From NCBI GenBank assembly GCA_903959355.1, contig CAJBWJ010000025.1, forward strand, positions 1 to 62,864: a stretch of DNA of 62,864 nt, in the 5' to 3' direction. The notes beneath the pieces were generated by a model that was not told the origin of the DNA, did not search any database, and saw only the letters and a list, made by a program, of their open reading frames with translations. Position 1 is the stretch's first letter; each line of letters begins with the position of its first letter. This DNA is from an uncultured bacterium (GTDB lineage: Bacteria > Patescibacteriota > Microgenomatia > UBA1400 > PJMF01). The position numbers were made by a program, and so were the translations under genes. Positions 7,327-36,400 of the stretch are shown here, piece after piece.

Positions 7327-7368
7327 CTTGATTTCCTTCATAATTTTTATTTGTGAATTCAATTCTTA

Positions 7369-7445
7369 AACATGAGACAAGTTTGAAGAAAATTGCTTAC
7401 TTGTCCAAGTCGACAATCTTTTTCAAGCTTTATTTGTCTCATGTT
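7369..7445 (-). promoter_or_regulatory. long imperfect hairpin in the nrdR-nrdJ spacer (candidate 5'-UTR/regulatory RNA structure)
   Basis: Perfect 12-bp outer stem AACATGAGACAA (7369-7380) / TTGTCTCATGTT (7434-7445). Inner pairings TTGAA(G)AA.ATTG/CAAT.TT(T)TTCAA and ACTTG/CAAGT. Confidence 0.4.
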
Positions 7446-7467
7446 AAAAAACTGAAATCAGTTTTTT
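7446..7467 (-). terminator. weak AT-rich intrinsic terminator-like hairpin after nrdR
   Basis: AAAAAACTGA-AA-TCAGTTTTTT palindrome 12 nt downstream of the nrdR stop. It has a T-run on both strands but only 3 G:C pairs. Confidence 0.35.
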
Positions 7468-7478
7468 ATATTTTAAAA

Positions 7479-7934
7479 TTAACTTTGTTCTTTTAATTTT
7501 CGAATCTCTTCTTCGAAGTCTGCCAATTCACCAAAGTCTCTATAAACGCTGGCAAAGAGTAAGTAAGAAAGAGGGTCAAGTTTTTTTAGTCTATTAAGAA
7601 CTAGATTGCCTATTTCCCAGCTTTTGACTTCAATGACTTCTCTCTGTCTCAACTTTGCTTCAACGTCTTCTATTAGCAGTTCTATCTGCAACATACTAAC
7701 TGGACGTTTCCAAGTAGCTTTAATCAAACCTCTTTTAACTTTTTCTCGATCAAAAGTTTCTTTGCTACCATCTTTCTTGATCACCTTAAGATCTACACCT
7801 TCAACTCTTTCGTAGCTAGTGAAGCGCTTCTTGCAAGCTTCACATGCCCGTCTGCGCCTCACACTGTCACCGTTTTCCGTCTCTCGCGAATCAATTACCG
7901 CCGTTTCGCTGCCTTTGCAAAATGGACACTGCAT
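7479..7934 (-). CDS. nrdR: transcriptional repressor NrdR (zinc ribbon + ATP-cone)
   Basis: N-terminal CPFC...CEAC zinc ribbon, SVRRRR motif and a C-terminal ATP-cone. 151 aa. Confidence 0.95.
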   Translation of the reverse strand: MQCPFCKGSETAVIDSRETENGDSVRRRRACEACKKRFTSYERVEGVDLKVIKKDGSKETFDREKVKRGLIKATWKRPVSMLQIELLIEDVEAKLRQREVIEVKSWEIGNLVLNRLKKLDPLSYLLFASVYRDFGELADFEEEIRKLKEQS

Positions 7935-15483: not shown

Positions 15484-18400
15484 TTATTGGTTTTCAACTG
15501 GTTGAACAAGCTCATATTGTGAAGAATTGTAAAAATATTCAATCTCTTGTCCATTACTAATAGCTCCAGCAAAACCAATTTCAACTGAATTATCTTCGAT
15601 AGGAGATTCACTGTCAAAATTAAGTCTACCTGCCTGAGCTGAAGATGGATAAAAAACGCCAGATTGTTCATTAGTTTGGCCAGTCCCAGGAGCAACCATA
15701 GCTATATGTCCCCTGGTTATAGCTATTGTAGGAATTCCTTGATTAGCCATTTCTTGAGCTTTTAAAGCAGAAGTAGATTGCCAACCTAAATCCTGTGCCA
15801 ATGGTTCTTCTAACCATTCTAGAGTAGTCGTCGCTGTCATCTTCTCACCATTTTTCCATCTTGGAATATAAACTCCAAGGGCACTTGTGACATCTGAAAC
15901 ATAGATATTACAAAAAGTTGTATCAGATGCTCGACGATAACGAAGACTTTCATCAACATTGAATAATTGTAAAGTTTTTAAATAATCATTAACATTTCTA
16001 TTAGTTGCGTACTCTGGGAAAATACTAGTATCTATCGGGTTCCACTCATCTCTGTCTATCAACATCAATGTTCCATCAGGCATGTATTTATATTTTGCAT
16101 AAGGATCCTCAACAACATATTCATCTGGCAAAGCAGTGTTCAAAATAACAGTTTTAACTTCAACTGGAGGTTGTGCTGCTATTGAAGTTGGAGATGGAGA
16201 TGGAGACGGTGACAAAGAAACACTTGGAGACGGAGATGGCGACGGTGACAAAGAAACACTTGGAGACGGAGATGGCGACGGTGATGCAGTTAAAGTCGGA
16301 CTAATAGTTTCTACAATTTGAGTTGGAGATGTTTGATTTGAAACAGTTTCTAATTGAGCATTAATTGTTTGAGAATAAATTGTAAGAAATACTCCAAGGC
16401 CAATAGATAAACCTCCTATTCCTAGTAAAATCTTTTTCCAAAAACCACTAATTAAATCATCATTTTCTGTACTTGGGGCTACAGAAGGAGATGGAGTAAC
16501 TGCGCTAGGTGATAAAGAAACACTTGGAGATGGAGACACACTAGGATCAATTGCTACTGAAACGGATGGGCTTACTGAAGGACTAACATCAACTTTTTCT
16601 TCTATTTTTTTACTGTCTTTGGTTAAACTAGAAATTTTTTCTACTAGTTCATCAAAAAATATTCTTTGTCTGGTAGAAATCGCAAAATCTCGCAAAAAGA
16701 CTCTTATCGAACTGATTCCACTTGAAATAACAGTATTTTGTAATTCAAGTAAACTCCCACTGATGATAATTCTTTCAAATTTTCCATCTTTTCCTTCTTT
16801 AAAGAAGGCCCATGATTGAAGTCCCTCTATATCTTTGCTGACATTGCCAAACAATAAATCTGCCACATCTTCAACTTCATCAGAAGTTAGATCTTTATAT
16901 TTAACAGTTGAGCCAAAACCGAAGATGCCACCTTCTCTGATACTCATTTTCTTACTATTAAGCATTTCTTCAGCCAGAATCGTGGCTCTATAAACAGAAT
17001 CTATAGCACTATCAACATCTGCTCTGGTCTTTCTGATCATGGCCTCACGAGTATTTATCCAAGCATTAAGATACAACTGCACACACTGATTTTGCATGCC
17101 ATGAGCATTAACCACCTGATTACGAGTGTCGCCTAATTGCTTTATAGCTGCTTTTTTCTTAGCTTCTGCCTGTTTAGCTAGATCTGCTGCTTTTGTTTGA
17201 TCTCCAGCTGTTTCGGCTATTAAAGCTTGTTCATTGAGAGCATTGGCTTCGGCCATTAAATTATCAGAAATTTGCACACCATTTTTAGTAGCTTCGCGAA
17301 CTTGAGCACAATCAGAGCACAAATCATTAAAAGCTAAGCTATCAGCATTAGACATCTCTCCCTGGAAAGATCCTGGGTTTGTGCCATGAGCTATGGCATC
17401 AATAAATTCATAACGAAGTGGAGCAACTTGCTTGAGATATTCTGGAGCAACTGAATACAAAGCTATAACATCTGCTAAATCTTCAGTTACAGCACGATCG
17501 TGTTGATCTCCACCAGCATCCTTGTAAGAATAATAGGCTTTCGCATAGTCAGTTGGTGGCAATTCAGTTGAACCTTTAGTTGAACCATAAAAATTATTAT
17601 CAAAAGAAGTAAGTAGTCTTGATTTGACGTAATTGCCATTAGCATCTTTTTCATATTTAATGATGTGACCAATTTCATGAATTAAAGCTGCTATAGATGC
17701 CTTATCTGACAAACCAATGTTAGATAATATCTTCTGCAAATGACTCTTCGTTTCATAATCAGATGTAAATTTAATAGATCCAAGCCACTGACCATTACTC
17801 AGAATCTCACTACCAGAAATTCCATAATAACTTTCACCACCATCAATTGTGCCAGGCTCCATTTTTTCTAATCTTATTTGATCAGTTTGCAGATAAGAAT
17901 AAAAAGGCGCTACCTTTTCGAAAGCAGATTGATAAGCAGATAAGTCTTTAGAATTAATTGATTGACTGTATTCTGCAAAATAAAAACCAACTTTTTGATT
18001 ATTACTATTAACAAAAGTTAATTCTGGTATATTTTCAGCATCCAACACTTTATTAGTTTTAGAAGAGTTGAAAAAAGATGCTGTTAAAGAGTCTGGGGCC
18101 GCTGTACTTAAAGAGCCATTTACCTTAGAAACTGTAGAAATGTCGCCTTGCGAATCTGACTGGGAAACAACAGTTGGAGAATAAATCTTGAAAGCTAACT
18201 TAGATATTTCTGTAATAATTCCAGGAGTAACATTATATTGTGTCTTATTGTCCAAGGCATTATAAATAACAATCGTATAGGCATCGCCATTTGGAAGTGT
18301 CACTATTGCAACATCTGAAGCTGTGAAAATGTCATCCTCTAAAACTGTCCCTGTTTTGTGAGCCATTTTGGCTTTAATTTCTGCTGTCAATCCAGCTCCA

Positions 18401-21400
18401 ATTCTAAAATCGTCATCTTTAGAATAAGTCTTCATCAAATTCAAAATATAATCAGTGCTAGTTTTTGATAAACCAGATTTATTAGCATAAAGATTTTCAA
18501 GAATGATGGCCATCGACTCTGCACTCGCACTTCTAGCATATCCGTCTACATCTTCTGTATAATATAAAATTCCATTTATGCCTATTTCTTCAAAATAAGC
18601 ACTCATGTCTTTTTGAGTAGAAGCATTAACAAAATCAACAAGTATAGATGTTGCTTCTTCTTCTGATTGAATCAGCATTGCTTTCATAAGTTGCGCAATA
18701 ATTCTGTCTTGACCTTTTGGAGCAATTTGCAAAGCTTGTTCTAAACTAATATTTTGCGATTCAAAATACCTCATCACCGCCATAGCCACTGGCACTTTAA
18801 TTGTTGAAGCAGCATGAAAAGATTTATTTTCCTGGTAAGAATACCCTGCTTCAGTTGAACCAATCTTATGTATGTAAGCTCCCCATTCTCCAGGAGCTTC
18901 TTCTAATATTCCTGTAATTTCTTGCTCTATTGCCTTAATTTCTTGATCACTTAGAGATGATTGCTGTGTTGGAATCGCATTTACTGCTGGAGGTGCAACG
19001 ACGGTTGGAGCTTTTTCAACTACTGGAGGTTGCGCAACAACTGCTGGAGCTTCAACAACTGGAGCTTGCTCCACAGGAGCTTGTGCTTGTGGAGCTTCAA
19101 CGGTTTGAACAATGGCTGGTTTATTGTCTACTGGATTCACTTTGGTACCCTGAGGAACCACTGAGAAGTAAACAATTGAGGCAACAACCATTGCAGACAA
19201 AACTGCCGCAACAATATTTCTTGGTTTACGAATGTTTAATTTTGGCAAATTAATTTTTGAAGCAAATCTCTTAGCAGCCGCCTTCTTAGCCCATAAATAA
19301 AGACCGGTTCCAAAGGTTCCAAAACCAACGGCTGCTGCAGCTGCATTGCGACCCAAACTCTTCCTGAAGTTATTGAGTCCATTACCTAAACTCTTAAGCG
19401 TTTCTGCTGGTTTAAATTCTTTTTTGTCTGCAACTGGAGCGATAGCGACTGGAGCAACACCACTAATTTCTTGCTTCTTGGCTTCTATCAAAGAAGTGAG
19501 TTTATCAGCCTGCATAATTAATTTGGCAGCACTGGCACTTGAAGAGTCAAAAGTGTATGGCTGACCAGTTAGAGTTATGTATTCAGAAATGAGAGTCTCT
19601 GCATTTGTTCTCAATTTACTCATGTAGTCACTTCTTTTTTGTAGAGTGTCAGCAAAAGCATTAATTTTTTCAAGAATATTATCTTGATTAAAATCGGAAG
19701 TCATTAAATAATCCAAGCCATCTACAACTCTCGCTAAATTACGATTTAATTCAGACAAAGACACTGAGCCGATTGATCCCTCAACTTCAAAAGCAGCAAT
19801 AACTGGCTGAATTTCTGTTAAAGCCAATTCTAATTGTTCTTGTTGTTTATCAGAGATAAAATTAGTTCTCATCTGTCTAACAATTTCTCTAATGCCAATT
19901 CTTAGAGAGTCTCCAATATATTCTTGACTACTCTTTTGTAATTGGACGTCTTTCAATGTTTTTAATTCTCCAGCCACTAATTCTTCTGTCAGATTTCCAG
20001 CATCTTCTTTAAATTCAGCCCATTTTTTAAGTTTCTGAGTCATTTCTTCAAAATCAGTCTTAGCTTGAGCATCTAGAGGAATGTTTTGTACTGGAGTAGT
20101 TAGACCAGGTAAACCAACGGCTTTAGTTATCATGAAACCATCGGCTAAAGTTTGACGAATAAATTGAGTTGCTTCATAGACAGACTTTATGGCTGAATTA
20201 GTATCGGCTAAAGTTTGCCTAATCAAAGCTTCACGTGCTCCAACCCAAGCATTTAAATAAAGTTGAACACATTGGTTTTCCCAACCATGATCATAAATTA
20301 CTTGGCTACGAATATCATCTAATTGTTTAATCGCAGCCTGTTTTTTGGCTGCAGCTTGCTTGTCAAAATCCACAGCTTGCTTCTGATTACCTGCGGTTCT
20401 GGCAGCAACAGCTTGTTTACTAAAAACATCAGCCTCAGCTAGAAGACTGTCAGCAAGTTCTACACCAGCTTTGGTTTGTTCACGAACGAGATCACAGTCG
20501 GAACAGAGACTGTTTAAATATGAACCAGCTTCATCTAACAAATTGGCAGGAGCAGTATTTAAAGATTGTCCCTGAAACAAACTTTCCAGATAAGTAATTG
20601 CGTCATTCAATTTGTTTACATCTAATAAATTAATGGATTTTATTAGAGACTGAACCAATAAGGAATCTACTCCATTGATTCTTTGTAAAGCCAACTTGAA
20701 TTCAAAAAGTCTACTTCCAAGACTTGTTGGATCATAATTAAGTAAAGATTTGGCACTAACATATTTCATGGCTTCAGCAAATGTTCCCACAGAACTGTGG
20801 GTAAAAACTCCAGCATCAGGTACATAAAATTGATTTGTTACTCCATCAAATTCAGGATTACTAACTAGTTTCTCCAAGTAATGAGCTAATTCATGAACTG
20901 AAACTCTTGTGTAGTTACCTGCCAAACTTCTTTGCAAATAAAAGGTTTTTTTAGTTGAACTAGCATTACTATTGTCATATCCACTAAAAGCTCCAGCAAA
21001 ACCATCTACTCCTTCTACAAAAGCAACTTCTTCTATGCCAAATGTTTTTGCAATTTCCAATATTTTCTTTCTAGCAAATTCTTCACTAGCTGTTAAATCT
21101 TTGGCAACATATTTTTCTGGATCTTTAAAGAAACTGTCCATTCCTACATAAGCATTGACCATGCTGGCCGCTTGAGCAACACGAGCAGTGTCAACCTCAC
21201 TCAAAGGCTGTTCAGAAACTTGTTCCACTTCAATTCCCAATTCTTTGGCCATTTCCATTTCTTTACTTACTCTAGACTTAGTACCCAATTCATTGGATTT
21301 TTTAGCAATTTCAGCTTGAACTTGTAATCTTTTAAGCAGCATGCTGGTGGTTTTTTTAGAATCATCAGTAGTTACGTTTAGGTTTAGAATCAACTTCAAA

Positions 21401-24400
21401 ATGCCATTTTTCCAATCCATCTCTTCTTGATTAATTAGAGATTGCAATTCTTCAGTAGATAATTCATCTATTTTTCCATCATTAATTTTTTTAATAATGC
21501 CTATCAATTCAACGTCCTTCCCCAAATCAAAAGCGTAAGAATAATTTGGTGACGAATACCAATCTAAAGGTAGAGAAGTAAAAACAAATTGTGGATTTGT
21601 TTGAGTAATTGCTTTTTGAGCCAAAGCTTTAAAGAAAGCTATTGCTAAATATTTTTGAATTTGTGGCAAATAATAAGATTCATTCTCAAATGATCCTCTA
21701 TTACGAATAAGTGGTAATGGAATTTGAATATTAAGATGCAAATCACTCACATATTTTCGTAAATCTTTTGGAATTAACTTTAAATATTCATCTTTTATTT
21801 CCTTAACTCTTAAGCCATTCCTATCAATAATTTGAAGAGGCATATCCTTGGTTTCATAAATCTGAATCTTTCCTTTGTTGACAACTGTTTTTGTATCTTT
21901 ATCGAATAAATTTAAATCTACATCGGCAAGCAACTTCTTTCCCTCAACAATTAATTCCTCTTCTTTTCCATCTGCTGCCTTAATATAAATTTTGAAATTA
22001 TCATTTTGAGACATACCAGCAAACATTTTCCAAGATTGTCTGGAAGAAATAGCCTCAAATTCAGGAATTGTATTTTCAGCATATTTAATTCTACGCACCG
22101 TTACTCCAGTTGGTAAATTTTCTCCAGCAAGATCTTTAAATCCTACTAAGACTAATTTTTCTGGATTTCCAGCGTCATTCTTTTTAACTTCAAAGAAGAA
22201 TTGATAGGCTCTATCTTCATTGACACTAACTATTTCCACCTTATCTACTCCTTCAAAGATTGTGTATTTACCTGTGCCAAAAAAGCCAGCCAAATCAATT
22301 TGTTGTCCGATTGATTTGGTAGATTTTGGAATAAGAAGAGCTATCTCATCAAGCGCTCCAGTTCCATTGTCATAAGCTTCTTCCACATACTCTCTGATGC
22401 CATTTCTAACTCTTAGATAAAAATCAACCACTAGCTTTCCAGCACGACCCCTAGTAGCGTCTTTTGCATTCTGAGTAATTTCAGCAGTATGAGCATCACC
22501 TTCTCTTTGCACTGCAATGTTCTTTAAAACTTCAGATTCTAAATTTTCATCAATTTTTGGAACATTTGTGGCAAAACCAGTAACTAATTCTTCTAAATTA
22601 TTAACAGGTTGAGACAAACTGCCTTTGGCCTGATTCATTTTGATGATTTGAGAAACTTGAAGACCTTCTTCTGGTAAATTAATATCTCTACCAGTGGCTT
22701 GCTCTCTGTCATCAAGTCTAAGCTGATCAACATCTCTACTTAAAAATATAAATATAGATCTGAGATCAGCTGGGATATTATCAATATCTTCTTTGCTATA
22801 TCTTCTTAAATATATGTCTAGAAGTCTTATATTTGATTTAAAAGAACCGACAATCAAATCAAAAAATTTCTTTCTTTCGCCTGATCTTAGGGCCATTATC
22901 TTTGCAATTTGTTGGCTTACGATTTTTGGATCTGACCATTCTCTCCCTGCAATTTCATCAAAGAATGCCGAGATGTGCAGAATTTGAGTGTAGCCATATC
23001 CTTCATTTTCCAAAGCTTCGATTAAAGGCCTACATGCTCTGTTCATATCAATAGATTTTTGTCGCAAGAATGGAGTGATGTAAGCAGACAAAGATAAATC
23101 GCTAGTTTTTATATCTAAAATAGTGTGGTCTGCTTTCATAAATGAAAAAAGAGAAAGACTCAAATGTTGATAAGCATATGATTTGTCATAAGGTTCAAGT
23201 GAACCGTATCTTTTATTGAAATCTTCCAAGAAAGCCTGCATATTTGGAATTTTGTTGGCATTTTTAATTGCCATATCAATTGGACCATTGCTCAAATCAA
23301 TTTCTGAACCGTTTGTTGCATAACTTAGAACTTGAGATTTGAGATATTCTTCTTGTTCTACATACATTTGCTTGATACTAGAAATAAATTCCTGTCTATG
23401 TTCTTCAGGAACTGAGTTCAAAATTGGCATGTATATATTTCTGAATTCTTGAATATATCTATCTCTGTTTTCTTGATTTTCACCAATAATTTTATTTAAT
23501 ATATCAGCTTTATTAACACCATTGATTTGATTAAATTCAGTTAAACCTTTTGTTTCTAGACTTTCCTTTGTATCGGCACCACTTTTAAGATCATCTATTA
23601 TTCTGCCAAGTTGGGTTTGATTTATTTCACCATGAAAGGTGATTACAACTTGTTTATTATTTTTATCTTTCAGAAGTACAAAAGAAGTTTGATTTGTGCC
23701 ATAAATATTACTTTTTATTACGATAGCATCACCATCAGAAACCACAGTTATATCCCCTTTGGTAAACTTAGGATCAATGCTAACAAGCTCTGAATAACCA
23801 TTTCTTAAGTCAAAAATTTCCATATTTGGAGATTCGCCAACAAACAAAAATCTGCCTTCAGGATCCATTGTCGCCTTGGAGACAATCCTTGAAGTTACTT
23901 TCCCTCCATAATTTAGGGTTATGTTTACACCAGCAGTTCCATAGCTAATTATTCTAGGCACTCCATAAGCGTCATCTAAATGTGACAATGATGCACTTTT
24001 AGAAAAGTTAATCATTTGAATATCTTTTTTCTGATTCTCATTCGTCACTGTTCGATAGATATAAGAAGAAAGCTTATCATTTTCTATTTCAATAAAACCC
24101 TGATCTTTCAAGTTAGATTCATTAAGAGTTGGAGCAATGAATGCAGTAGGATCAGCAGTAAACACAAAATTACCTCCAGCATCAAATAAAGCTCTACCTT
24201 TTGGAAAATCTAGTCTTATTTCAGCACCGCGAAATTTATCTATACTATAAGGACCAGGAGGATCATTAATTGTGAACCAAACTTTAAAATCATTTTTGTT
24301 CAATGATTCTATAAGATTCTCTTTGAAAGTATCAAATTCACTTGTCAAAAAACGAGGATCGTCAATCATTTGCGGGAAAAAAACTTCTACAATCTGACCA

Positions 24401-27400
24401 TTTATTATTCCAAAATAAAAAAGTCCATTTGGACCGCTCACGATATCATCAAAACCTATTGAATAACCACCATAGCCAATTGTTTTATTAAGATAAAAAG
24501 AATAAAAATGTTTTTTGCCATTTTCAATAATAATTGCATTTTTTTGTTTAGATTTTAAAAATGAAGAGCTTGTAAATTCTATTTCTTCTTTGAGAAGAAG
24601 AGTGTACTCATTACTAAATTGTAAAGTTGAAAATTCATTTTGGTCATAAGCTGTTTTTGTATAATAGTTACTTCCACGAGAGTTATATGAATAAACCCCA
24701 GCTTCAGCGCCAGATTCAAGAATTAGTGCGCCACTTTTAACATCTAGAACTCCACCATTTTGATCAACTAATATTTCACCAGTTGGAGCGCCAGTAAATG
24801 GCTGAAGAGTTTTTTTATAATTAGTATTGGTAGAAGGATTTACAAAACTACTTGAAAAATCGTTTGCTAAAAATTTATTTACAATATCTGAATCAATATT
24901 TCCCTCGTCTACTTTTACATTCAATTCGTCTTTCGTAATTATTTCTACATCTTCTATTCTCAAATTCTGTTCCACAGAACCAATTTCATAATCAGTTACA
25001 ACCTGATCAGCTGTTATGATATCTATTCTTTCTGCTAAATCTAAAAATTCTTGTTGCTCCTCAGTGTTTAATTCTCTTTGAGATCTTAAGTCATTTAACT
25101 CAATAAATCTAGCAAATGCATAAACATTTTTTGGTAAAACGACCATCGATCCATTCTTAATTACTGGCAAACGATCAATGGCTGTATTCAAATGCCAGGC
25201 ACCATTGAATGCGCGTGCTAAGCTAGTTGCATTGTCATCAAAATCAACAAACACTAATGGCAATTTGCTAGCACCACCAACAGTAATGTTGCTAACTATT
25301 TTTGCTCCTAAATAATTTTTCAAGTAATAAGATTCATTCCAATCAAAGACATCCTTATTTAGAAAAACAGTTTTATTTCTATCAATTGCAATTGATGAAA
25401 AGCTGGCCTCATCAGTAAAAATTAAATATCCATCTTTTCTTAGAGATACCAATATATCTTTAATTTTATCTTTTGTAGCACCTTTGATACTGTTAATTGT
25501 TTTTTTATAACTTGGATTACCACCTTCCAAAAATTCTATTCCAGCAATAATGGTGTTTATATATTTTATTTTTTCTAAAGACTGCAGCTCACTGTTTGAA
25601 ACAATTCGATCGACCATGTCATCTATGGCAACTTCAAAATTACTCATTTTACCTGATTCAGACTTTGAATTAATTATTAGGCTATCTCTGGACTCTGGAA
25701 CTTCAACTAAGTTAGCCAGTTCTAATAATAGATTGCCGGACACTAAAGAACCTTCAACCTTATTGCTTGGTAAAACAAAAGAAACAATTCCTTCTCTATT
25801 TCTAGAGAAAATAATTCTTTTTTCTTCATCATTACCTAATTCTTCAAAAATAAGTCCTAATTTAGTCTTTTCTTGCTCAATTTGCTGTTCATTTAAAGGC
25901 TCGGTAACTTTGGAGCCTTGCTTTGGCACAAACATTCTGCTTAAAAGAGCTTCGTTCATGCCAGTACCGTTATCAATTATTTCTATCGAATTAGAATTAG
26001 CTTTAACGTAAACAACATTATCTTTTGGATCATTAACTATGCCACCCTTGCTATAAGGAATAATGCTTCTTTTTTTGTTGTAACCATTTATTAATTTGTA
26101 ATCATCTCCTCCAAAGCTAGTAAATATTTTTAATCCTGGTACAAAAGAGTATTTATTACGAACTCCGCCGACAATCTTTTCTTGTGAAATAGTTTTTACA
26201 TCGTTGAGCTCACTATTTAATTTCGCGATATCGTCTTTAACGCTTAATTTGATCTTAGTGCCATGATCCAAATCAAAAGCAAAATCTCTCTTAGCATCAT
26301 CTTTGCTAAGTTTTTTCAAACTAATGTTATATCCGGATTCATTTTTACTTACACGGAGATAAAGAACACTCTCTGATCCAGCAGAAGTAGTTAGAACTTC
26401 GACATTGTCTTGACCATTAGTATCCAACCAAGCCAAAATTTGTTTAATACCTTTACCAAATTTACCAATACTATTACCTATCCCTGGAATAGCATCTATG
26501 CTATTAGCAACTGCTTCATAAATTGATTGCTCCATTGAAGAACCACTTTGTTGATTTATTTCTACCGAAACTCTTGGATCCAAATCACTACCTGGGACAA
26601 CTTCTTCAACGCCAGCAATTATTTGTACGATGTCTTTTCTATAAGAAGAATCTAGTAAAATACCGTATATATCTTCATAAAGCTTGGTCTCTGAATATGT
26701 ATTTAATGGTAAATTTGTGGCTTTTGCCAAATCAAGAATTTGTTGCTTTGTTAAATTCTTGAGAGCTAAATTGTTTTGAGCGACAAGAAATAAATTGTAA
26801 TCTACCCCTTGATTAGAACTACTAGTTTCATCTGTATTTATTAAACTTTTAATTTGCTGTATCTGCTCTCTTAAAGAAATCTCGCCAGCATCTAAATTAT
26901 AATTAAATTTCTTTTTTGTGGTTGTAAGATAGCTTTGAGCTAATTGCTTTAATTCACTTCTCAATGAAGTTAAATTTGCTTTAACATCAGTTAGTTGTTT
27001 GGCAAAATCTTTAATTTCTGTCCACCACTTCTTATTTTCTAATTTAGAATTTTGGAAAAATTTTGTTGCACGGTCAACAGTTCTTAATGCTTCATTGATT
27101 TCTCTGAGACTTAAAGAGCCAATCATGCCTGGCTGTCTCAATTTGGAAAAGACTGGGTCGTATTTTTTTACAAAATCAATTAATTTTGTATTACTTTTTA
27201 CTGCATTACTTGCTTTAGATTTAAAGTCATTTACATCTTTAAAACTCGCACTATCTTGATTAATGATAATCATGCCAAGAATATCTTCAGTGGAACCTTG
27301 AAAAAAGACATAATCCAAGCCAGATGATTTTTCTAAAGCATCTATCTCAATAATTAAATTAGATAAAATATCCAACTGCTTCTCATAGTCACCAACAGTA

Positions 27401-30400
27401 ACAATGTTCACATCAATTCCTAATGATTTAAAGAGCTCAGAAATTTTTGTAAACTTTCTTTGTTGATCATTCAGCCACTGATTGGCATCTATCTCAGTTT
27501 TCCATGAATTAACTAAAGAGCTTTCAGCACCAATTTGCACAGCTTTATCACGAAGTGCACTGAGAGCTATTCCATCTTCTGGAGAATTATTTATTTGATC
27601 ATTCTCATTGACATATGATTCATTCATTTGTTGCAAATCAACAAGTGCTTTTTCAAGTTCGTCGGCAGTCATAGCAGCTAAATCATATTCAAGAATTGCA
27701 CCCTTAGCCTTCAGTTCTTCCATTATTGGATTGATTTTACCTATGAGTTCTTTTTTACGATTTGTTTCTTCCAATAGTTTTGAGGCATCATCTAGAGCAG
27801 CTTGGATTTTTGCAGATAAATCAATGGTTCTGTCAGCTATACTCAACAAACCATTTAAAGAAACAAAGTTTGGAGTAATCTTGCTTATATTCAAAATAAA
27901 AGCATTCCTAGTAAATTTATGTTGATTAAATGCTTCTAAAACTAAATCAAGCAGTTTCTGACTAAGAACAGAGACGTCACTTAAGGCTTCGTTTCCTAAT
28001 AAGAATGGTTTAACTTGAATACCTGCTTGTCTAAATGAATTCAAGAAATTGGACACTTCTCTTTGAGCATCGAGAAGTGCTTTGGCTTTTTGTAAAAGCG
28101 CTGTTGACTGCAAAAGACCATCCTCTAAACCAGTTATTGTTTGATTAGTATTTGCCTGAGCGCTTAAAAGATTGGCTACGTTTAAAACTGATAACTGATC
28201 TTGTAGCTTAGATCCAGAATTAGCTGCAGCATCAGTGTCTAAATTATTTTTTTCAATTTGTTTGTTAATTTGACCAAGCTGTGCGCTTATGTTTTCAAAT
28301 TCTGAACGCAATTGACTTAGCTTTTGTCTACTAGATTCTGATTGCTCATTAGCTTCAATTAATACATCAGATAACGGTCTAGCCAAAATTACTCCTAATT
28401 GTTGCTTTGGAAGACCAGCTGCAATCGCCACATTTAATTTTTCTATTCCTGGAACTGTTTGAGTGAAAGTTCTCCCTCTGCTTTTGCCTTTCCCGTATTT
28501 ACTGTCATATGATCCAGAAAGTGCGCCATCAACATTAGTTACTCTTGAGTCTTTTGGCACTGCTGTCTCACTGTGACCATGCACTAAATGCTCTGCATTG
28601 TAAGTTTCTAAGAAATAAGAGACATCCCCTGCTAAATCGAAACCTTCTCTTTTAGTTAGATCATGCAACAATAATTCCAAATCTTTTAATCCCGATTGAT
28701 TGCTCATTATTGAACGTATTCTATTGTTTACATCTTGAACAGTTTTTCCATACGCTGTGTAAGCAGTGGTATCACTATGAAAACGTAGAACGCCATCATC
28801 TATAGTCATAGCATCTAGATTCATAACCCAATTTGCTAAATCTGGATGATCAAAAAGATAAATCACTTCTTCTGGAGTAATTCCTGGGTTCATTCCAGTA
28901 AAACTTCCTGCCTCTGCAGCAGTGTTTTTATCAACATTTGGCCTATTTGCTAATATATCTTTCATTCGCCAATATGCAAAAATAGCATTTATATCGTGAT
29001 TTCCAATTAATACCTTAACTCTAGGAGTTCCGTCAGCAAAATTTCCAGCTTGCTTTTGCAAATTCATGATACGCTCTGCTGTTTCAGCAGCGCTGACACC
29101 AGCTGGAGCACGATCAAATAAATCTCCGGTAAGAACTAAGTAATCAGTCGGCCCACCAATCCATTTTTCATTACTATCCAATAAAGGTTTGCTTATTCTT
29201 TCTCCGCTTTCGTTCGTTGAGCTTCCACTAAGCAATCCAACTAAAGCCTTCCAGTCTCCGTGCACATCTCCGATGGTAATGATGTCTCGACGAGTTACTT
29301 CATCTTCCTGCAAGGATATCTGCAAACGATTGGTAGCTGTATGTCTGGCAACAAAGAAATCTTCTGTAACTGTACCTAAAATATCTCTTATATAGCCATC
29401 AGCTCCTTCTGGATCATTTTTAAATTCAGGAAGATAACTAAACTCTCCAACCACATAACTCAAAGCTGGCTGTAATTTATATCTAGCAAATTCTCCTTTA
29501 ATTGTTTGCGTGATTTGCATGCGCACGGCTGCTAAATCTTTATTATTTTCTCTGCTAAGAGAAAGAGCTAACGTACGCAGAGATTGATTAATATTTTTAT
29601 CTAATTCTACGACAACCTTATCTCTAATTTTTTGTGCTGCTGCTGCCTGCTGCTCTTTTGTGAAAGCTGGCTTTATCTGACCGGATAAAGCGGTAGCTTG
29701 ATTGGAAATTTCTTTAGATCTAATCAAAAACTCATCTCTTTGGCCTTGGAGTTCTTTTAGCTTGGCCTGTAATTGAGTGGTGTTGTTTTTAATATTTTCT
29801 AATTCTTGGTTTATCTCTCCAGAGAGTTTTATTTTTTGCTCTAAATCTTTTAAAATTGCTTTCGCATCACTTATTTGCGAATTTAAATATTTCACTTCAG
29901 CATTGATATCTCCATAATCTTTAGCTAAAGTATCAAGTTGAGTTTTTTCTTCTGGGCTCAATATTGCAATTCTATTAGTTGGAACAGTTTTTAACTTAGA
30001 AGCTAAACTAGAAACTGCTTGTCTAAATCCAGCAGTTTTTTGCCAAAGTTGTTTAGCTCTATCCGATAATTGCTTGATTCTTTCTGATAAAGAAACTGAC
30101 GAAGTTTTGTTATTTTGAATTTCTGGTACAGATTGAGTGCCAGCATCAGCAACAGGCGCTAAATTTTCTTTTTTATTTTCCAAAAGAGCCTTTGCTTCAT
30201 TCCATGCTTTAAGAGCTCGATCAGCACTAACATTAAGTCCTCCAGCTCTCTCAGGAATACTAGCCAATAATCTGCTTACTCCACTTCTTAAATTACTGAG
30301 ATGAGTGCTTAAGCCAATTTGCACATATTTGACATCGTCGGCATATTTTTCTTTAACTACAGGAATTGCTTCGGCAGTAAAATCTTTTTGATTTATGGAT

Positions 30401-33400
30401 TCATTTTCTGCCTGAATTACATCTACTTGTTTTGCAAGAGCTTCCATAGCAGCAAGCAATTCTTGCTGTTTTTTGTTGGCTTTAGTTTTTTGAAGTTCTT
30501 GATTTAATTTATTAATTTCATCAGCCACAGCTTGCATCTCTGCTGCTTTTTCCAATAAAGCGTCTGCTTTTATCTGTAAAGCTGTATTGTCAATTTCTGC
30601 TTTATTATCAGTCATGAAAGCTTGCTCATTGAAACTATCAGACCAAGCAACTGGAAGATTGGCTAATGAAGCGGCACTCACAGTAAAAGTACCACCTCTC
30701 TCTGAATTGACAAAGAAACTCTTGATTCCATCAGTTCGATAGTTATCAGCTAATTGTTCTGTAGTTTTAGCTTTTGCCGCAGCATCTATAGCAGTTTGGT
30801 CAGCTTGAGCTGCTTTTAAATTTTTAATTTGTTGATCTATAGCGTCTTTTTCTGCTGGTTCTGTAGCGGCGCCAAGCTGTTCAATGAGTTTTTCTATTTG
30901 AGCTTGGTAACCTGCAGCAATCGCTGTTTTATTATCTTCAACAGCAGCAGCATTTTCAGCTAAAAGCTTTTCTTCATCAACTGCACCATTCCACAAGTTG
31001 GAGGCAAATGTGGCAAAACCAATATTTCTAGAAGAATTATTTTGTGACGATTGGTTTGAGCTGTTGTTATTTGTGGTGGTGTTTCTAGTATTATTTGTTC
31101 CATTATTAGTTGTGGTGTCACCAGCAGGTCTAACTAGACCAGCTCCACCACCATTAGCATCTGGGCCATCACTACCAGGTCTAACCGGAGCGGCACCTCC
31201 ATCAATATTTCCATCTGTACTAGTTTTACTATTTATTTGAGCTTCACTAGCCGCTCTAGCCATTTCATTTCCGACAACTTCTGGCGCAGAACTCTTATTG
31301 GTAAAGGCAATATTAACACTCTCTAAATGCTTAGAGCTTTGATTAATGAGATCAACAATCTGACGATAAGATGGATTTTCACCAAGAACTTGATATCCTT
31401 CATCGCCACTAAAAGCTAATTTGACTGGATTATTCCCAATAGCACCATCAGCACGTTTGGCCAATAATTTTGCTGGTTCACCACTATTTGCCAACAATCT
31501 AGTTAGCTCAGCATAAGCAGCACCTACTTGAGAGGCAGTCTTTTCTAATTTAGCCTGAGCAGTCATATCATCACTCCCAAGCATATAGTTCATACCTGTA
31601 GTTTCTTTCCATTTCTGCTGAGCAGCCTCAAGTTGAGAAACTATATCGAGATTTGTCTTATAGGAACCAAAGCCCAAGAAACCATCTTTGCCATTTCTAG
31701 CCAAATCAATTAATTCAGCAAAAGTTCCATCAACACTATTTTTGAGCAGAGTTTCTTTGAAACTAACTTCTGCGAGAGCTTCATTAATTGTTTGCAGACG
31801 ACTCATGTCAGCCGTGAAGTTTTCTATACTTGGATCTCTGAGAACACTTGGAGCGTCAAGCCAAACAATATCAATTGGAGCGTGTTTAACTTCATATGCA
31901 CCAGTGCTATTTTTAGTCACTTGAACACGAACACGATTAATACCTTGAGAGAAAGTAGTTTGATCACAACCATTACAAAGTCCAATTGCTCTACTCAAGC
32001 TAACATTATTGGCAGTATCCACACCCACATGAGCACCATACTCATAAAATTTGACATAACGCTCTGAAGTTTTATCTAGATCTGCTGTTCTTGCATTCAT
32101 TGCCTCAGTGCTTGCAAATTCACCAGTTCTAAGCAAAGCTCCACCGCTTATCTGATATTCGATCAATTCTCCATTCGCTCCAACCAATAAAATTTTCTGA
32201 TAAGGAGCACCGGTGTCAGTAATTGTTTTAACTAAATTGGCCAGAGCAGCCTCATTGCTACGAAGTCCAGAGGCCATATTAATGAAAACTTGATTTCTAC
32301 CATCTGCCAAGCGAGCCGTCATCTGATCTTGTAAGTTAGTGAAAACTCTTGAGTTGGTGCCAGCTGGAGGAGCATTAAATCTAGCAATCGAACTATCAAC
32401 TGCTGAATCTGTGAAAACATTTAGCTCAATGCCGTAAGCCATTTTGTAAAGTTTGGCGACTGTTTCAGGAGTACCGGTGTAGAGAGAAAAGCCTCTGCTT
32501 TCTAACATCAAAAGTGCATAGTTGATTTCGCTACCACCTTCACCAACGGTAATTTTATTGATATCAACTTGTCCATTTGCTCCCATGATTCTAGCGCCGA
32601 GACTGTTGTAGAGTAATGATTCGGCAACAGCACTGTAAGAACGGCCACTAGTTCTGCCTTGTTCTCTCGGAGCAATACTACTAACAACTTCTTCTACGCC
32701 GCCAACGGTTTTTTTATTACTAGTTGGACCATAATCTTCTCCAGGCACTCTGGAAAGAAAATTAACTGTTTCGTTAATCATTGCCATTTCAGCACGACGC
32801 TGGTGAACATCTGCATCAGTGCCTCTGGTTAAATAATCATTGATCTGTTGTCTAATGGTTTTTGTATCAGCTGACATATCAAGGCCTGGAATTTTACTTT
32901 GACCGCCCCAAGTCCCCAACCATTCACCAAGCACTTGTTTTTCCAATTCTGGACTAGCAAATTTACCGCCTTTGCCATCACTGGTGCGAGCAATTCCTTC
33001 TGGAACAGATTTACTGTTGCTTAGTTTACTAATTAGATCATTTAAAGTATTAAGTCCTCGACCTGGTAAAAGATTACCATTTTCATCAATTCCTAAAACT
33101 TGTTTTTGAGCATCTGCATAAAGACCAAATTCAGCTTTATCTCTTAGTGCAATTTGAGTTCCAGAAAGTTTATAATTTTCGTTTGGATTGAAAGTCCAGT
33201 CAACTTCGTCGGCATGAACAAAAGAATTTCGCCATTTGCTGCGAAGATTCAAGCCGAGTTTAGTATCGGTGTTTTGCAAATCAAAAGCTACATCTTTGGT
33301 GGTAATTACAAACTTAGCGTTGGCAATTGCTATTGGATCAACACTCGTGTCATTGGCTTTAATAATTACAACACTGCCTTTACCGAATTGAGATTCAACG

Positions 33401-36400
33401 TAATCGATGAAGGCTTTGTTTGGAATTGGATTTTCACCACCAGTCGTCCATGGCTTTGCTAATTTAGCCTCTGGAAAAACCACAAATTGTGGCTGACCAG
33501 TTAAACGCTGTTTTAGCAAAATATTAAAAGGCATCACCACATCAGTTTTACCCATACCAGGCAGTGCTCCAAAAACTGTACCGCGTCGACCTGCACCAAA
33601 AGCTTCTACCTCTGCTAACAAGAAAACATCCTGATCTTTGAAGGTATCAGTTCCACTATAAATTTTGAAAGGACCACCATTTTTCTTAACATCTGCTTGG
33701 GTTTCACTAGATCGTCTAAAGGTTTCAAATGCCTGCAACTCTGTATTTAGAATATCGAGTTGTTTTTGTTTGATGCCGGCAGCTAAGCCAGCGTCTGTGA
33801 CTACGTACTTAGTAAAATCACCAGATTTATCAACAGCTATTACAGCACCATTACCTTTTAAAGGATTTCTAGCAGTTTTTAGTAATTCAGTAACCTCACC
33901 CTCCAATCTAGTTATTTCTACTTGATTAGCTGTAGCATCCTCAGTTTTTAATCTTTCAATTTCTGCCTGTTTGGCAACAATTGCTTCCGCTATATTTAGG
34001 TTGCTTTCACCCATTTTTTTTGCTGCATCTTTCAGATCAGCAATCTGACCTCTAGTTTTAATGCCTGATACAAAATCAGTGATAGTTTGTCTCATGCCTT
34101 TACTTGGATTAGCTGCCGCTTGAGCTAAAAGATATTGCTGGTCGCGTAATTGACGATTTGCATCAGCAAGCTGTTCTCTAAAAGCTTTTGCATCAGCACT
34201 ATCTGCTCCGACGCCAGCCAATTTTGCTCTGAGCGTTTCAGCTTCACGAGTTAAATCTAGAGATTTGTAATAAGCTTCTCTGGTAGACTTACCTGGACTA
34301 AAAAAGTCTGTAATCTTCTTCCAAATTGGACGGCTATCAGCAGAGACTGCATCAGCAATTTGTCTGATGCCGCCAATTTCTGCATCGATAGCATCAAATT
34401 TAACCATTTCAACTTGTAAATCATTTCTTTGAGTTTCTAAGTCAACAACTCTGGCAGTATCTGCTTCGTTTAAAACTCCCTGATTATTTAATCTATTAAT
34501 TTCTGCGCTTAATCCGTCAATTTTTCTGCCAACCTGATCGCTACTATCAACACCAAGGCCAATTAATAATGCTTGTTTTTGACTTTCCAGCGCAGTAACT
34601 TTGGCTAAACTATCCTGCAAAGCAGCGATAGAAGCCAAGCGCTTGGTTTCGTCAGTTTCCAATTTAACTTTAGTGGCATTGGCCTCCAGATCAGTTTGAT
34701 ATTTGGTAACTTGTTCGTTGTCTGGAGCGTACTGCTTAACTAAGCTGGCTTTCTCGACATCATTTTTTAATAAATTCTCATATTCAGAAAAAGCTTCGTT
34801 TTTCTTTGCCACGCTTAAAAGAGCTTCATTCTGAGTTTTGAGTGAATCAACTGCTGAAAGACTTTTTGTTAAATTTTCCAAATCAGCCACTAGGGCAGTT
34901 CTTTTTTGTTGGAGATCAGCGACTTCGCTTTCTGGTAAAAGGACACCTCTTTTAGTAATTTGTTCATCAATTGCAGTGATTTGATCTCTAACAGCAGCGA
35001 TTGCATTTGGCCCTTCTTTAAAAATTTCTATCTGTCCAGCTAAATAAGCTTCTTTTTCTGTTTGAGCAGTTTTTCTAGCGACCTCTGCTTGATCAAGATA
35101 ATTAGCTACTTCTGCTTTTCCAGCAATTCTGGCAGCTTCAACGTCAGCTGCATATTTAGCTTCTGCAGCCTTACCAGCTTCGGCGCTATCTTTTAATTGA
35201 GTTTCTAAGTCAGATGCTACACGAACACTACTAGCCATATAATTTTCAGTTGAATTATCATTGCCAGCAATTCTAAAGTTTGGATTGATGCCCTCAGCCT
35301 GAGCGACTAAATTCGATCTCTGAGCTTGCAAATCATTAATTTGCAATCCCTCTCTCATGCCTTTATTTGGACCATTTAAAGCCAAAACTTCGGCGTCGAT
35401 AGCATCAATTTGTTTTTGAATATCCACAACGTGAGCAGTTTCAATTCCTGCCTTAGCTGCTGCTGTATCTGCTAGATAAGATTTTCTACTACTGGCAATT
35501 TGAGAAACATTTTGACCGGCACTAAGTGCCAAACCTATCCAAGCATTGGTACAATCTTTTTCTGAAAAAGCCCCACTTGAACCATAACAAGCTTGAGCAA
35601 CTTGCTGAGCATCAACTGCTGCGCCAGCTGGAACGTTCATTGCATCTAGCACATAATCAATTTTATTGGTGTAAGAAGTTGGACCAAGCAAACCAAAAGT
35701 GTTGCCAGCAACACCTGAAGCTGCCACAAAGGAACTAATTCCACTCATAATTCCACCACCAATATTGCCTTCTTGAAATGAATTGTAAGAAGAAATTCCA
35801 GAATTAACTGCATTGTAAGAATTCATGGCTATACCACTAACTTGACCTGCTTTAGTTAAAACTTGACCAGAAGTAGCTAAGACATTAGCTGTAGCACCAG
35901 CATTAACTGCGCCAGCAGCACTAGTCAATAAACCACCAACACTAGTCATAGCTGCCACTGCTGAATTAGCCAACATCATGTTGCCTTGCTGATTAAGTGC
36001 ATCCACCTGAGCGCTCAAGTCAGTTTTGACTTTTTCAATCGTTACTTCATCTGCTCCGTTTTCTATGTAAGATTGAACAACTGCGTTTTCTCTAGACTCA
36101 ATATCTATTCTTTGAATTTCTAAGGCTTGAGCCTTCATTCCAGCACCTTGATATAAAGAAAAGGCAGAGGAAGCTATGCCCAGCACAGCTGGAGCGCCGA
36201 CACCACTGATTAACATTGCTGTTAGAACTGGAGCAGCTACCACTGGAGCTACTACTTTTGATAAGCGTTCAAAATCTAATTGCTGACTAGAACGCTGTAT
36301 TTCTGGATCAGTTAAGAACTGCTCATAAGTGGCCTGATCGACTTGATTAATTCCAGCTTTATTGGCATTGGCAATATAATTACTGTAAAGATCATTCTTC

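Follow-up and report, generated by a model that had tools for sequence, protein, structure and literature searches.

Two paralogous copies of an undescribed domain in a giant, zincin-bearing membrane protein of a CPR bacterium

Giant proteins with embedded peptidases

West-Roberts et al. (bioRxiv 10.1101/2023.11.21.568195) describe giant proteins of ultra-small and predatory bacteria with multiple transmembrane (TM) helices, divergent SecA_DEAD domains and embedded peptidases, and propose that these peptidases may cut the giant protein, whose topology is ambiguous. In the polyvalent proteins of phages and conjugative elements, one to several interspersed zincin-like MPTase domains (HExxH), distantly lethal-factor-like, are the commonest hub and have been proposed to act in autoprocessing (Iyer et al. 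2017, PMC5512222).

The window analysed here, the whole stretch of 62,864 nucleotides, contains a giant ORF of 7,902 aa (15484..39192, minus strand), which holds all features discussed below, all encoded on the same strand. The host is an ultra-small bacterium of a CPR/Paceibacterota-type lineage, and the product is a 7,902-residue membrane protein with an N-terminal signal anchor and TM-like segments at residues 12-30, 980-1011, 6660-6678 and 7588-7606. The same protein was recovered on five contigs in the public collection and is therefore not a one-off assembly artefact. It resembles the West-Roberts proteins as a very long single ORF of a small genome, with several TM helices, an enzyme mosaic, embedded peptidases and an ambiguous topology, and its relatives P0020 and P0021 also carry SecA_DEAD (PF07517), which Pfam did not report in the giant protein itself at E<=0.01. 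In contrast, those proteins exceed 30 kaa and have C39 or S8 peptidases, while this one has 7.9 kaa and HExxH zincins and belongs to a Paceibacterota-type CPR bacterium; no mention of a CxxC helical module was found in the passages of that preprint retrieved by term search.

The likeness to polyvalent proteins lies in the many unrelated domains, the interspersed zincin-like HExxH regions and a weak ATLF match given below. However, the product is membrane-anchored, the module has no significant match in PHROGs or BFVD, and the gene is chromosomal, adjoining the rRNA genes in a window that carries 23S and 5S rRNA and a tRNA, with no mobile-element context seen around it. With this setting, and with no significant PHROGs match for five segments (two zincin regions, two modules and the C-terminal domain), a phage or conjugative polyvalent protein was rejected.

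The duplicated unit and its age

An undescribed domain of some 230 aa occurs twice in the giant protein, as the paralogues copy A (residues 6226-6460; 19813..20517; C6230, C6233, H6302, C6308) and copy B (residues 7288-7525; 16618..17331; C7292, C7295, H7364, C7370), with the same predicted architecture of a helical hairpin, two helices and an alpha/beta subdomain. BLASTP aligns them with 95/238 identities (E=3e-40), and in the ungapped core (6226-6345 versus 7288-7407) 72 of 120 residues are identical (60%), with a Smith-Waterman score of 371 versus 33.7 +/- 6.1 in shuffles (z=55.6). The similarity of the downstream half is weaker but real (z=4.7, reached by 0/500 shuffles). A preliminary description, made from the sequence alone, had placed HELAH and HEIGH at about residues 6100 and 7172, with the modules 129 and 119 aa further on, and had counted 70/113 identical residues by hand, with all three Cys conserved and weak similarity continuing downstream. 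All of this is borne out: the two motifs lie at residues 6100 and 7172, LCSDC at 6229 and 7291 and NQCVQLYLNAW at 6306 and 7368, and one His (H6302/H7364) is common to both copies besides the three Cys. The hairpin helices are rich in Ala, Lys and Gln, a composition that could suit a chance or low-complexity coiled-coil resemblance, but the BLASTP E-value, a z of 55 against composition-matched shuffles, the persistence of the similarity after SEG filtering, and motifs conserved family-wide refute this reading, and its probability is negligible.

Each copy follows a zincin-like region. Region A (approximately residues 6035-6160; 20713..21090), with HELAH at 20881-20895, belongs to an unclassified family, also present in giant proteins of Omnitrophota, with the invariant pattern FAGxF...HELxHxLE...TH...GxFAxAMKY. 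In its AF2 model, an N-terminal helix (46-62) and a three-stranded sheet (66-70, 78-81 and 94-98) precede the helix bearing HELAH (99-122), an arrangement expected of zincins, and pLDDT is <50 past this helix. Searches of Pfam and PDB gave no match to any family, and no TM helices were found around HELAH. Region B (approximately residues 7058-7275; 17368..18021) has its HEIGH (17665-17679), invariant in six family members, inside a predicted helix (123-140 of the model). An invariant E-D-x-x-D (residues 7237-7241; 17470-17484) follows 65 aa past HExxH on another predicted helix and fits a candidate gluzincin-type third-ligand helix (ExxxD type). No curated family was matched at threshold by region B, the best Pfam matches, ATLF (E=0.13) and DUF2268 (E=0.14), being below the cut-off; a PDB profile search found nothing, and the best Foldseek match was ERAP1 (E=0.68).

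Downstream of copy A there is a helical spacer (residues 6461-6616; 19345..19812), which resembles residues 4013-4118 of the same protein and is unlike the region after copy B. Next come an Ala/Gly-rich, weakly hydrophobic segment (6617-6635; KD 1.2), a highly basic loop and, at 6660-6678, a strong TM helix (KD 2.4), together spanning 19159..19344. Copy B is followed by a TM helix at residues 7588-7606 (KD 2.1; 16375..16431) with Pro/Ser linkers on both sides. TM helices had been noted after each copy from the start and were found again, the first of the two segments after copy A being weak.

The same description had regarded the whole succession of zincin, module, helical region and TM helix as a duplicated cassette. 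This stands for the module and fails for the other parts compared: the two HExxH regions resemble each other below the shuffle mean (z=-0.33), and the segments between module and TM helix are unrelated (z=-1.27). By these sequence comparisons, the duplicated unit is one domain. An ancestral tandem could nevertheless have been duplicated as a whole, its zincin and TM-proximal parts diverging beyond recognition while the module stayed conserved. Such a scenario would agree with the like HExxH-to-CxxC distances (129 vs 119 aa), the TM helices after both copies and the zincin-like core modelled in both HExxH regions, whose HExxH helices hhalign pairs. However, besides the chance-level similarity of the zincin regions and the unrelated post-module regions, only 53 columns around the HExxH helix align between the two family profiles (hhalign probability 20%), and zincins A and B are different zincin families. 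Each type has closer relatives elsewhere without the module (P0022-P0024 and P0026 for A, P0021 for B), and in P0017/G006 and P0018, relatives with both A-type and B-type copies, the orthologue of copy A lacks an upstream HExxH. In addition, the zincins that accompany modules, on one side or the other, represent at least five families, a pattern indicative of domain shuffling. A whole-cassette duplication therefore appears very improbable.

The duplication had been taken to be old, with diverged DNA copies that are both maintained, and our results agree. The DNA of the copies is 62.8% identical over 360 nt (42.5% at third codon positions), with synonymous changes even within the NQCVQLYLNAW block, and no long exact repeats were found. 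In the tree, A copies and B copies separate into two clades (support 100/97 and 97/97), each with orthologues in other species; A/B orthologues were found in three species. Synonymous divergence (dS) between the copies is saturated, and the dN/dS of orthologues is 0.15 (A) and 0.11 (B). By the tree and these rates, the duplication is older than the divergence of at least three species, and purifying selection acts on both copies. In other lineages, the domain was duplicated independently.

Distribution, predicted fold and candidate ligands

The module had matched nothing recognised by eye, and it likewise found no match in Pfam, NCBIfam, PHROGs, PADLOC, PDB or Foldseek, and no significant match in the BFVD viral structure library. 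A search of protein sets, as suggested in the preliminary description, found it in only 14 clusters at E<=1e-10 among 1.84 billion proteins; almost all of these are giant proteins from CPR bacteria. The host proteins, mostly of 1.7-7.8 kaa, are enzyme mosaics with Fic, kinase, phosphatase, SLT and beta-lactamase-like domains. Within the same genus, the domain occurs in 5/14 other genomes; searches of 26 further genera from the family and order, and of 400 further genomes from the phylum, found none. Within the range of these searches, the family is restricted, nearly without exception, to Paceibacterota-type CPR bacteria and, in them, to giant mosaic envelope proteins. Its modules form three clades (A, B and clade 3), and a remote variant (hhalign probability 93%, E=2.4e-7) sits after zincin A in P0007 and after zincin B in G004.

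AlphaFold predicts the same order of elements in both copies, namely a long antiparallel helical hairpin, two shorter, very conserved helices (QxY...EAxIR...D...A..S.Y.AT) and a small alpha/beta subdomain modelled as beta-hairpin/helix/beta-hairpin/helix. In both models, block-mean pLDDT reaches ~83-96 for the greater part of the hairpin and for the first shorter helix, and pTM is 0.46-0.49. The CxxC lies one residue ahead of the first modelled helix, which has 34 residues and belongs to an all-helical bundle. A thioredoxin-like redox domain was rejected on this arrangement, which has no beta-alpha-beta; the Foldseek listings, 50 best matches per model, likewise include no entry with a thioredoxin fold.

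The His and the third Cys are located ~70 residues after the CxxC, where the second helix ends and the third begins, with variable spacing between the two clusters. CxxC and His are invariant in 12/12 alignment rows, and the third Cys is conserved at 90% or more. Indels cluster at the hairpin tip, so that hairpin length varies between homologues while the base is fixed. As CxxC and the His(+Cys) of HGMQNQC flank this hairpin of varying tip length, they probably lie together at its closed base. There they would most likely hold a structural metal (Zn) or, if the domain is extracellular, be joined in a disulfide, and either bond would staple the hairpin. Zinc knuckles and Cys2-His-Cys staples likewise have a CxxC and then a distant His and Cys at variable spacing. 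In contrast to them, the fold context of the module (hairpin and alpha/beta subdomain) matched no zinc-finger structure, and the fourth ligand is not universal: P0008, P0009, P0020b and G004 have another residue in place of the third Cys, and the remote variant lacks it, so that a classical four-ligand Zn site cannot be general in the family.

Helices 3-4 and the alpha/beta subdomain also carry invariant polar residues (R, Q, Y, E, R and D). With these, with only three invariant ligand candidates (C, C, H) in the aligned modules and with enzyme mosaics as hosts, the module might itself be an effector or enzyme (e.g., metal-dependent, with Cys2-His and water) and the cargo of a polyvalent-type giant protein. 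Nevertheless, the searches showed no resemblance to any enzyme in either sequence or fold, catalytic scaffolds seldom consist of long helical hairpins, and cargo domains usually vary between relatives, whereas the module keeps fixed positions before TM anchors. We consider an effector role unlikely.

Peptidase and membrane neighbours and possible roles

Among 27 module instances, 11 have an HExxH no further than 200 aa upstream or 250 aa downstream of the module, versus 3.7 expected, an excess whose significance is overstated by treating related proteins as independent. Several families are represented among these neighbours, namely zincin A, zincin B, HEAGH, HETDH, Peptidase_M48 (E=7e-15 and 5e-14) and M78-like. 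The enrichment of unrelated HExxH families gives indirect support to a functional coupling of module and peptidase. However, the peptidase partner is not obligatory, since 16/27 instances have no HExxH nearby and the A-type copies in P0017, P0018 and P0010 are preceded by helical, FHA or phosphatase-like sequence. Of the 27 instances, 11 have a TM helix behind the module, and all 11 belong to clade A or clade B; among B-type modules the distance to it is conserved at ~52-67 aa. Nearby TM helices are lacking in clade 3.

Between the two copies lies a class A beta-lactamase/PBP-like domain (residues 6773-6977; 18262..18876; Pfam Beta-lactamase2, E=7e-27), which NCBIfam class A models match below their cut-offs. 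Behind copy B lies a C-terminal domain (approximately residues 7660-7902; 15487..16215) without a match in the Pfam search; relatives conserve it after their B-type modules, as BLAST collinearity with G004, G002, G006 and G007 shows. The highly basic loop ahead of the TM helix at 6660 would place copy A inside and copy B outside, in conflict with the K/R bias at the B-type TM helix (11 upstream, 2 downstream), by which copy B would be inside.

The BlaR1/MecR1 sensor-transducers combine an M56 zincin with an extracellular PBP-like sensor. The giant protein is like them in having a zincin and a penicillin-binding/beta-lactamase-fold domain in one chain with a TM helix between them, the Beta-lactamase2 domain following TM 6660-6678, and the best Foldseek match of the copy A model was BlaR1 (8exs_A), although weak (E=0.056, probability 0.75, TM-score 0.16). 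In contrast to BlaR1/MecR1, zincin A is a soluble domain with no set of four TM helices around it, the PBP-like domain is class A-like, and zincin A is missing at the orthologous position in P0017 and P0018. An M56 zincin among TM helices was rejected for region A, with no Peptidase_M56/M48 match and no TM helix around HELAH. It is improbable that the modules are metal- or redox-gated latches controlling zincin self-cleavage on both membrane faces, which with the PBP-like domain would make a BlaR1-like 'sense outside, cut inside' device releasing enzyme payloads upon touching the cell wall of a host or prey.

Taken together, the overall reading, fairly likely, is that one domain was duplicated and, as a best guess, that its copies would be metal-stapled peptidase partners near the membrane. 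The A/B-type domain would sit a conserved distance ahead of TM anchors that bracket the PBP-like domain, zincin B and copy B. Tentatively, it may be a partner of the neighbouring metallopeptidase, acting as a docking, latency or cleavage-site element in the self-processing of a giant precursor. Nearly as likely, and ranking just below, it may possibly serve only as a structural stalk or adaptor, a rigid metal- or disulfide-stapled spacer or oligomerisation element with no specific peptidase link. The varying hairpin on a fixed base, the conserved distance to TM anchors in two clades, the many non-peptidase neighbours and the lack of similarity to any enzyme would suit such a stalk, but the conserved polar residues on helices 3-4 and the alpha/beta subdomain exceed what a spacer needs, HExxH domains are enriched beside the module, and clade 3 lacks nearby TM helices.

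An old intragenic domain duplication alone is ordinary biology. To our knowledge, hardly any annotation exists for the giant mosaic proteins of ultra-small bacteria. The present analysis defines a compact, well-conserved new domain with Cys2-His(-Cys), some 230 aa long, which is modelled with confidence, is very rare and has been duplicated repeatedly; it adjoins zinc peptidases of several unrelated families and precedes membrane anchors in two of three clades. These associations offer a concrete experimental handle, and the domain is small enough to express; if it marks processing sites, it would reveal the positions at which giant proteins are cut.

Two copies of one domain in a giant open reading frame

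The giant ORF (window 15484-39192, minus strand) encodes 7,902 aa and contains a Cys/His helical domain of about 230 residues, hereafter the module, at residues 6226-6460 (copy A) and 7288-7525 (copy B). The genome comprises 864 kb in 86 contigs and is approximately 89% complete, and the window also carries 23S rRNA, 5S rRNA and one tRNA. The identical giant protein is recorded on five contigs in the public collection; therefore, the duplication did not arise from a single faulty assembly. Related genes occur on public contigs labelled Candidatus Paceibacterota or Parcubacteria group, indicating that the giant gene belongs to an ultra-small bacterium of the CPR. This CPR-type gene is also present on four contigs labelled "uncultured Pseudomonadales bacterium" (CAZWWE010000001.1, CAYXMW010000002.1, CAYREI010000011.1 and CAZHLX010000014.1; L018-L021). 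As G005, a genome of the same genus, is among them, the MAGs have probably been mislabelled taxonomically.

The motifs lie where the preliminary description had placed them: HELAH at residue 6100 and HEIGH at 7172, LCSDC at 6229 and 7291, and NQCVQLYLNAW at 6306 and 7368. The similarity of the copies, previously aligned by hand, was recovered by BLASTP between residues 6226-6454 and 7288-7520 (40% identity, 238 columns, E=3e-40) and persists after low-complexity filtering; a self-BLAST of the whole protein showed no internal match, and pairwise and windowed BLAST were used instead. Over their first 120 residues the copies can be aligned ungapped (72/120 identical), and this core scores 371 against 33.7 +/- 6.1 in composition-matched shuffles (z=55.6), while the second half of the module is weaker but genuinely similar (z=4.7, matched by none of 500 shuffles). 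At the DNA level the copies are clearly diverged, as already noticed: the cores are 62.8% identical (42.5% at third codon positions), even the block of 11 invariant residues contains synonymous differences, and a search for long exact DNA repeats found none. Therefore, what is conserved is the protein, and the absence of such repeats, together with the synonymous differences throughout, leads us to reject a recent gene conversion.

Smaller repeats were also observed. Copy A contains a mini-repeat, IRQTLAD...IRQTLAD, 21 residues apart in helices 3 and 4 (window 20140-20226, residues about 6323-6351), seen in the DNA as a 24-nt repeat of 88% identity; IRQTLAD followed by IRQTLA(D/N) is also found in the A-type copies of the related proteins P0017 and P0018 and is missing from B-type copies. 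In addition, the helical spacer after copy A (residues 6463-6569, window 19486-19806) resembles a segment some 2,450 residues upstream (residues 4013-4118, window 26839-27156; 27% identity over 107 aa, E=6e-6), which looks like another recurrent helical unit of such giant proteins.

Extent and age of the duplication

The preliminary description proposed that a whole cassette, composed of an HExxH zincin, the CxxC module, a helical region and a TM segment, had been duplicated. Shuffle tests, zincin profiles and orthologues uphold this for the module and contradict it for the zincin and TM parts. The alignment of the copies starts one to three residues ahead of CxxC and ends about 230 residues further on. 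The HExxH regions of about 250 aa upstream of the copies, containing HELAH (zincin A) and HEIGH (zincin B), score below the shuffle mean (z=-0.33), and when profiles built from the relatives of each are compared, the match is limited to 53 columns at the HExxH helix (hhalign probability 20%), which is no more than generic zincin likeness. On these two values, we reject zincin A and zincin B as paralogues. Hydrophobic segments do follow both copies where they had been reported (residues 6660-6678 and 7588-7606), and the stretches leading to them from the modules are unrelated (z=-1.27). Moreover, copy A lacks any upstream HExxH in P0017 (G006) and P0018, relatives sharing the two-copy layout. 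Therefore, given these unrelated flanks and zincin-less orthologues, the cassette reading fails for its outer parts: one domain was duplicated, not a protease-to-membrane cassette.

A maximum-likelihood tree built from 29 instances of the module groups copy B with P0017b (identical to G006b), P0018b, P0004, P0019, G004 and G002 (support 97/97) and places copy A in a separate clade with P0017a (G006a), P0018a and P0010 (G007) (support 100/97), showing that the duplication preceded the divergence of these species. The dS between the copies is saturated, and the dN/dS among orthologues is 0.15 for A and 0.11 for B, in agreement with the earlier proposal that the duplication is old and that both copies are maintained. 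The two-copy state arose more than once, as P0002 (two sister copies), P0020 (two from one subclade) and the public contig L022 (also two) each hold their own pairs.

Sequence, predicted fold and distribution of the module

According to alignments of 17 sequences and 12 rows, the module starts with an invariant C-S-x-C, followed by V-R/K, G and a near-invariant D, and by a helical stretch of variable length. The core reads R-x-x-V-x-x-H-G-x-x-N-x-C-x-Q-x-Y, then E-A-x-I-R, D, A and a near-invariant S, commonly with Y-x-A-T behind it, and GFLGIG-like and GL..AEF motifs are found further on. AlphaFold2, run on both copies with family alignments (pieces of P0025 and P0027 were left out of these and unused elsewhere), predicts the same succession of elements in each: a hairpin made of two helices of about 33 residues, then two helices of about 20 residues, and finally a beta-hairpin, helix, beta-hairpin and helix. 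In both models, block-mean pLDDT is about 83-96 across most of the hairpin together with the first of the shorter pair of helices, and about 78-93 across most of the alpha/beta part. CxxC is located one residue ahead of the first modelled helix, and the His and third Cys are found where the second helix ends and the third begins. Since they flank the hairpin in sequence, they would meet at its closed base. With these candidate ligands around the base and the indels among homologues at the tip, we infer a putative metal-stapled (Cys2-His-Cys) hairpin. The third Cys is substituted in P0008, P0009, P0020b and G004.

The module had matched nothing recognisable, and this holds for all the collections searched. 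Scans of the modules, zincins and C-terminus against Pfam, NCBIfam, PHROGs and PADLOC gave only noise, save Beta-lactamase2 and Metallophos; profile searches of PDB sequences with the zincin B plus module, zincin A and zincin B alignments found no match; and Foldseek returned nothing at E<0.05 (both models against PDB, model B against BFVD). Its best matches were BlaR1 and ERAP1 (E=0.68), the others being generic helical repeats, ferritins and 14-3-3. For the model of residues 5990-6460, containing copy A, the closest PDB structure was S. aureus BlaR1 (8exs_A, E=0.056, probability 0.75, TM-score 0.16). Like BlaR1, the giant protein has a zincin and a PBP-fold domain with a TM helix between them. 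However, no sequence match to M56 or M48 was found for zincin A, which is also missing at the orthologous position in P0017 and P0018, so the BlaR1-like layout is only weakly suggested and is taken as a lead rather than as family membership. The beta-lactamase-like domain between the copies (window 18262-18876, residues 6773-6977) shows, by eye, S-T-I-K and K-T-G motifs and S-E-E in place of the S-D-N of class A enzymes, and its scores fall far short of the cut-offs of the NCBIfam class A models; rather than a beta-lactamase, this may be a domain of binding or DD-peptidase type.

The module is very sparsely distributed. A profile of both copies retrieved 15 clusters (14 at E<=1e-10) from 1.84 billion representative proteins, nearly all of 1.7-7.8 kaa. 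The three short matches (P0003, P0009 and P0014) look like fragments of giant ORFs and not stand-alone module proteins; in the module tree, P0009 branches next to copy two of P0020, from which it hardly differs. Whole-genome searches found the module in 5 of 14 other same-genus genomes, in none of 26 from other genera of the family and order, and in none of 400 others across the phylum. A remote variant, GCS(D/N)CL...H(L/S)...N...Q...EA, retains CxxC and the H...N...Q...EA..R core without the third Cys (hhalign probability 93%, E=2.4e-7), and occurs at residue 2307 of G004, 5648 of P0004, 427 of P0007, 2151 of P0012 and 5325 of P0020. In G004 it follows a zincin B, at the position of copy B in the window protein, and in P0007 a zincin A.

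Peptidase neighbours, membrane context and possible role

Of 27 module instances, 11 have an HExxH motif nearby, at most 200 aa upstream or 250 aa downstream, against 3.7 expected at random placement, although the naive P=2e-4 overstates the significance because related proteins are not independent. The neighbours are diverse: zincin A in the window protein and P0006; zincin B in the window protein, P0017 and P0018; HEAGH in P0020; HETDH in P0011; an M78-like domain in P0002; and, directly after the module, bona fide Peptidase_M48 domains above the Pfam cut-off in P0008 (residues 4866-5250, E=7e-15) and G005 (residues 5318-5700, E=5e-14). Each zincin also occurs apart from the module. Zincin A, with the invariant residues FAGxF...HELxHxLE...TH...GxFAxAMKY, has relatives in giant proteins of other metagenomes, two labelled Omnitrophota, and the module was found in none of those tested (P0022-P0024 and P0026). 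Zincin B, defined by HExxH and an invariant EDxxD, is also present in P0017, P0018, G004 and P0021, the last without a module behind it.

The best indication of what the module does is that several unrelated zincin families adjoin it, on one side or the other. Self-cleavage of the polypeptide has been proposed both for the zincin-like domains of polyvalent proteins (PMC5512222) and for the peptidases of giant Omnitrophota proteins (bioRxiv 10.1101/2023.11.21.568195). On the leading, still tentative reading, the module could be a metal-stapled partner domain of the adjoining peptidase, with a role in docking, latency or cleavage-site presentation. This reading is weakened by the 16 of 27 instances without HExxH nearby and by the A-type copies of relatives, which are preceded by FHA, phosphatase-like or helical sequence.

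The membrane context bears on a second explanation. B-type modules are followed by a TM helix 52-67 aa downstream and then by a conserved C-terminal domain, whereas behind A-type modules, after 150-400 aa, a hydrophobic segment that is weak and Ala/Gly-rich leads through a very basic loop into a strong TM helix; no TM was found near the modules of the third clade. The second explanation, in which the module is simply a structural stalk or adaptor ahead of membrane anchors, is nearly as likely as the peptidase partner. The extremely basic loop is itself a conserved feature of A-type cassettes: in the window protein (window 19216-19287, between the weak segment and the strong TM) it has 24 aa with 9 K/R, and homologous loops are found in P0018, P0010 and P0017, where it reaches about 70 very K/R-rich residues.

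Topology calls from hydropathy and the positive-inside rule conflict. As the basic loop precedes the TM helix at 6660-6678, the beta-lactamase-like domain would be outside and, by continuity, zincin B and copy B also outside and copy A inside; the hydropathy scan found no further hydrophobic segment between this helix and the TM of copy B. In contrast, the K/R bias at the B-type TM helices (11 upstream vs 2 downstream in seven proteins) argues for copy B on the opposite side. The topology bears on whether the cysteines of the module bind metal or make a disulfide.

Any function of the module is deduced from its context only. What this giant CPR envelope protein, itself of a kind recently recognised, contains is an old duplication, still maintained, of a domain that is new and very rare.
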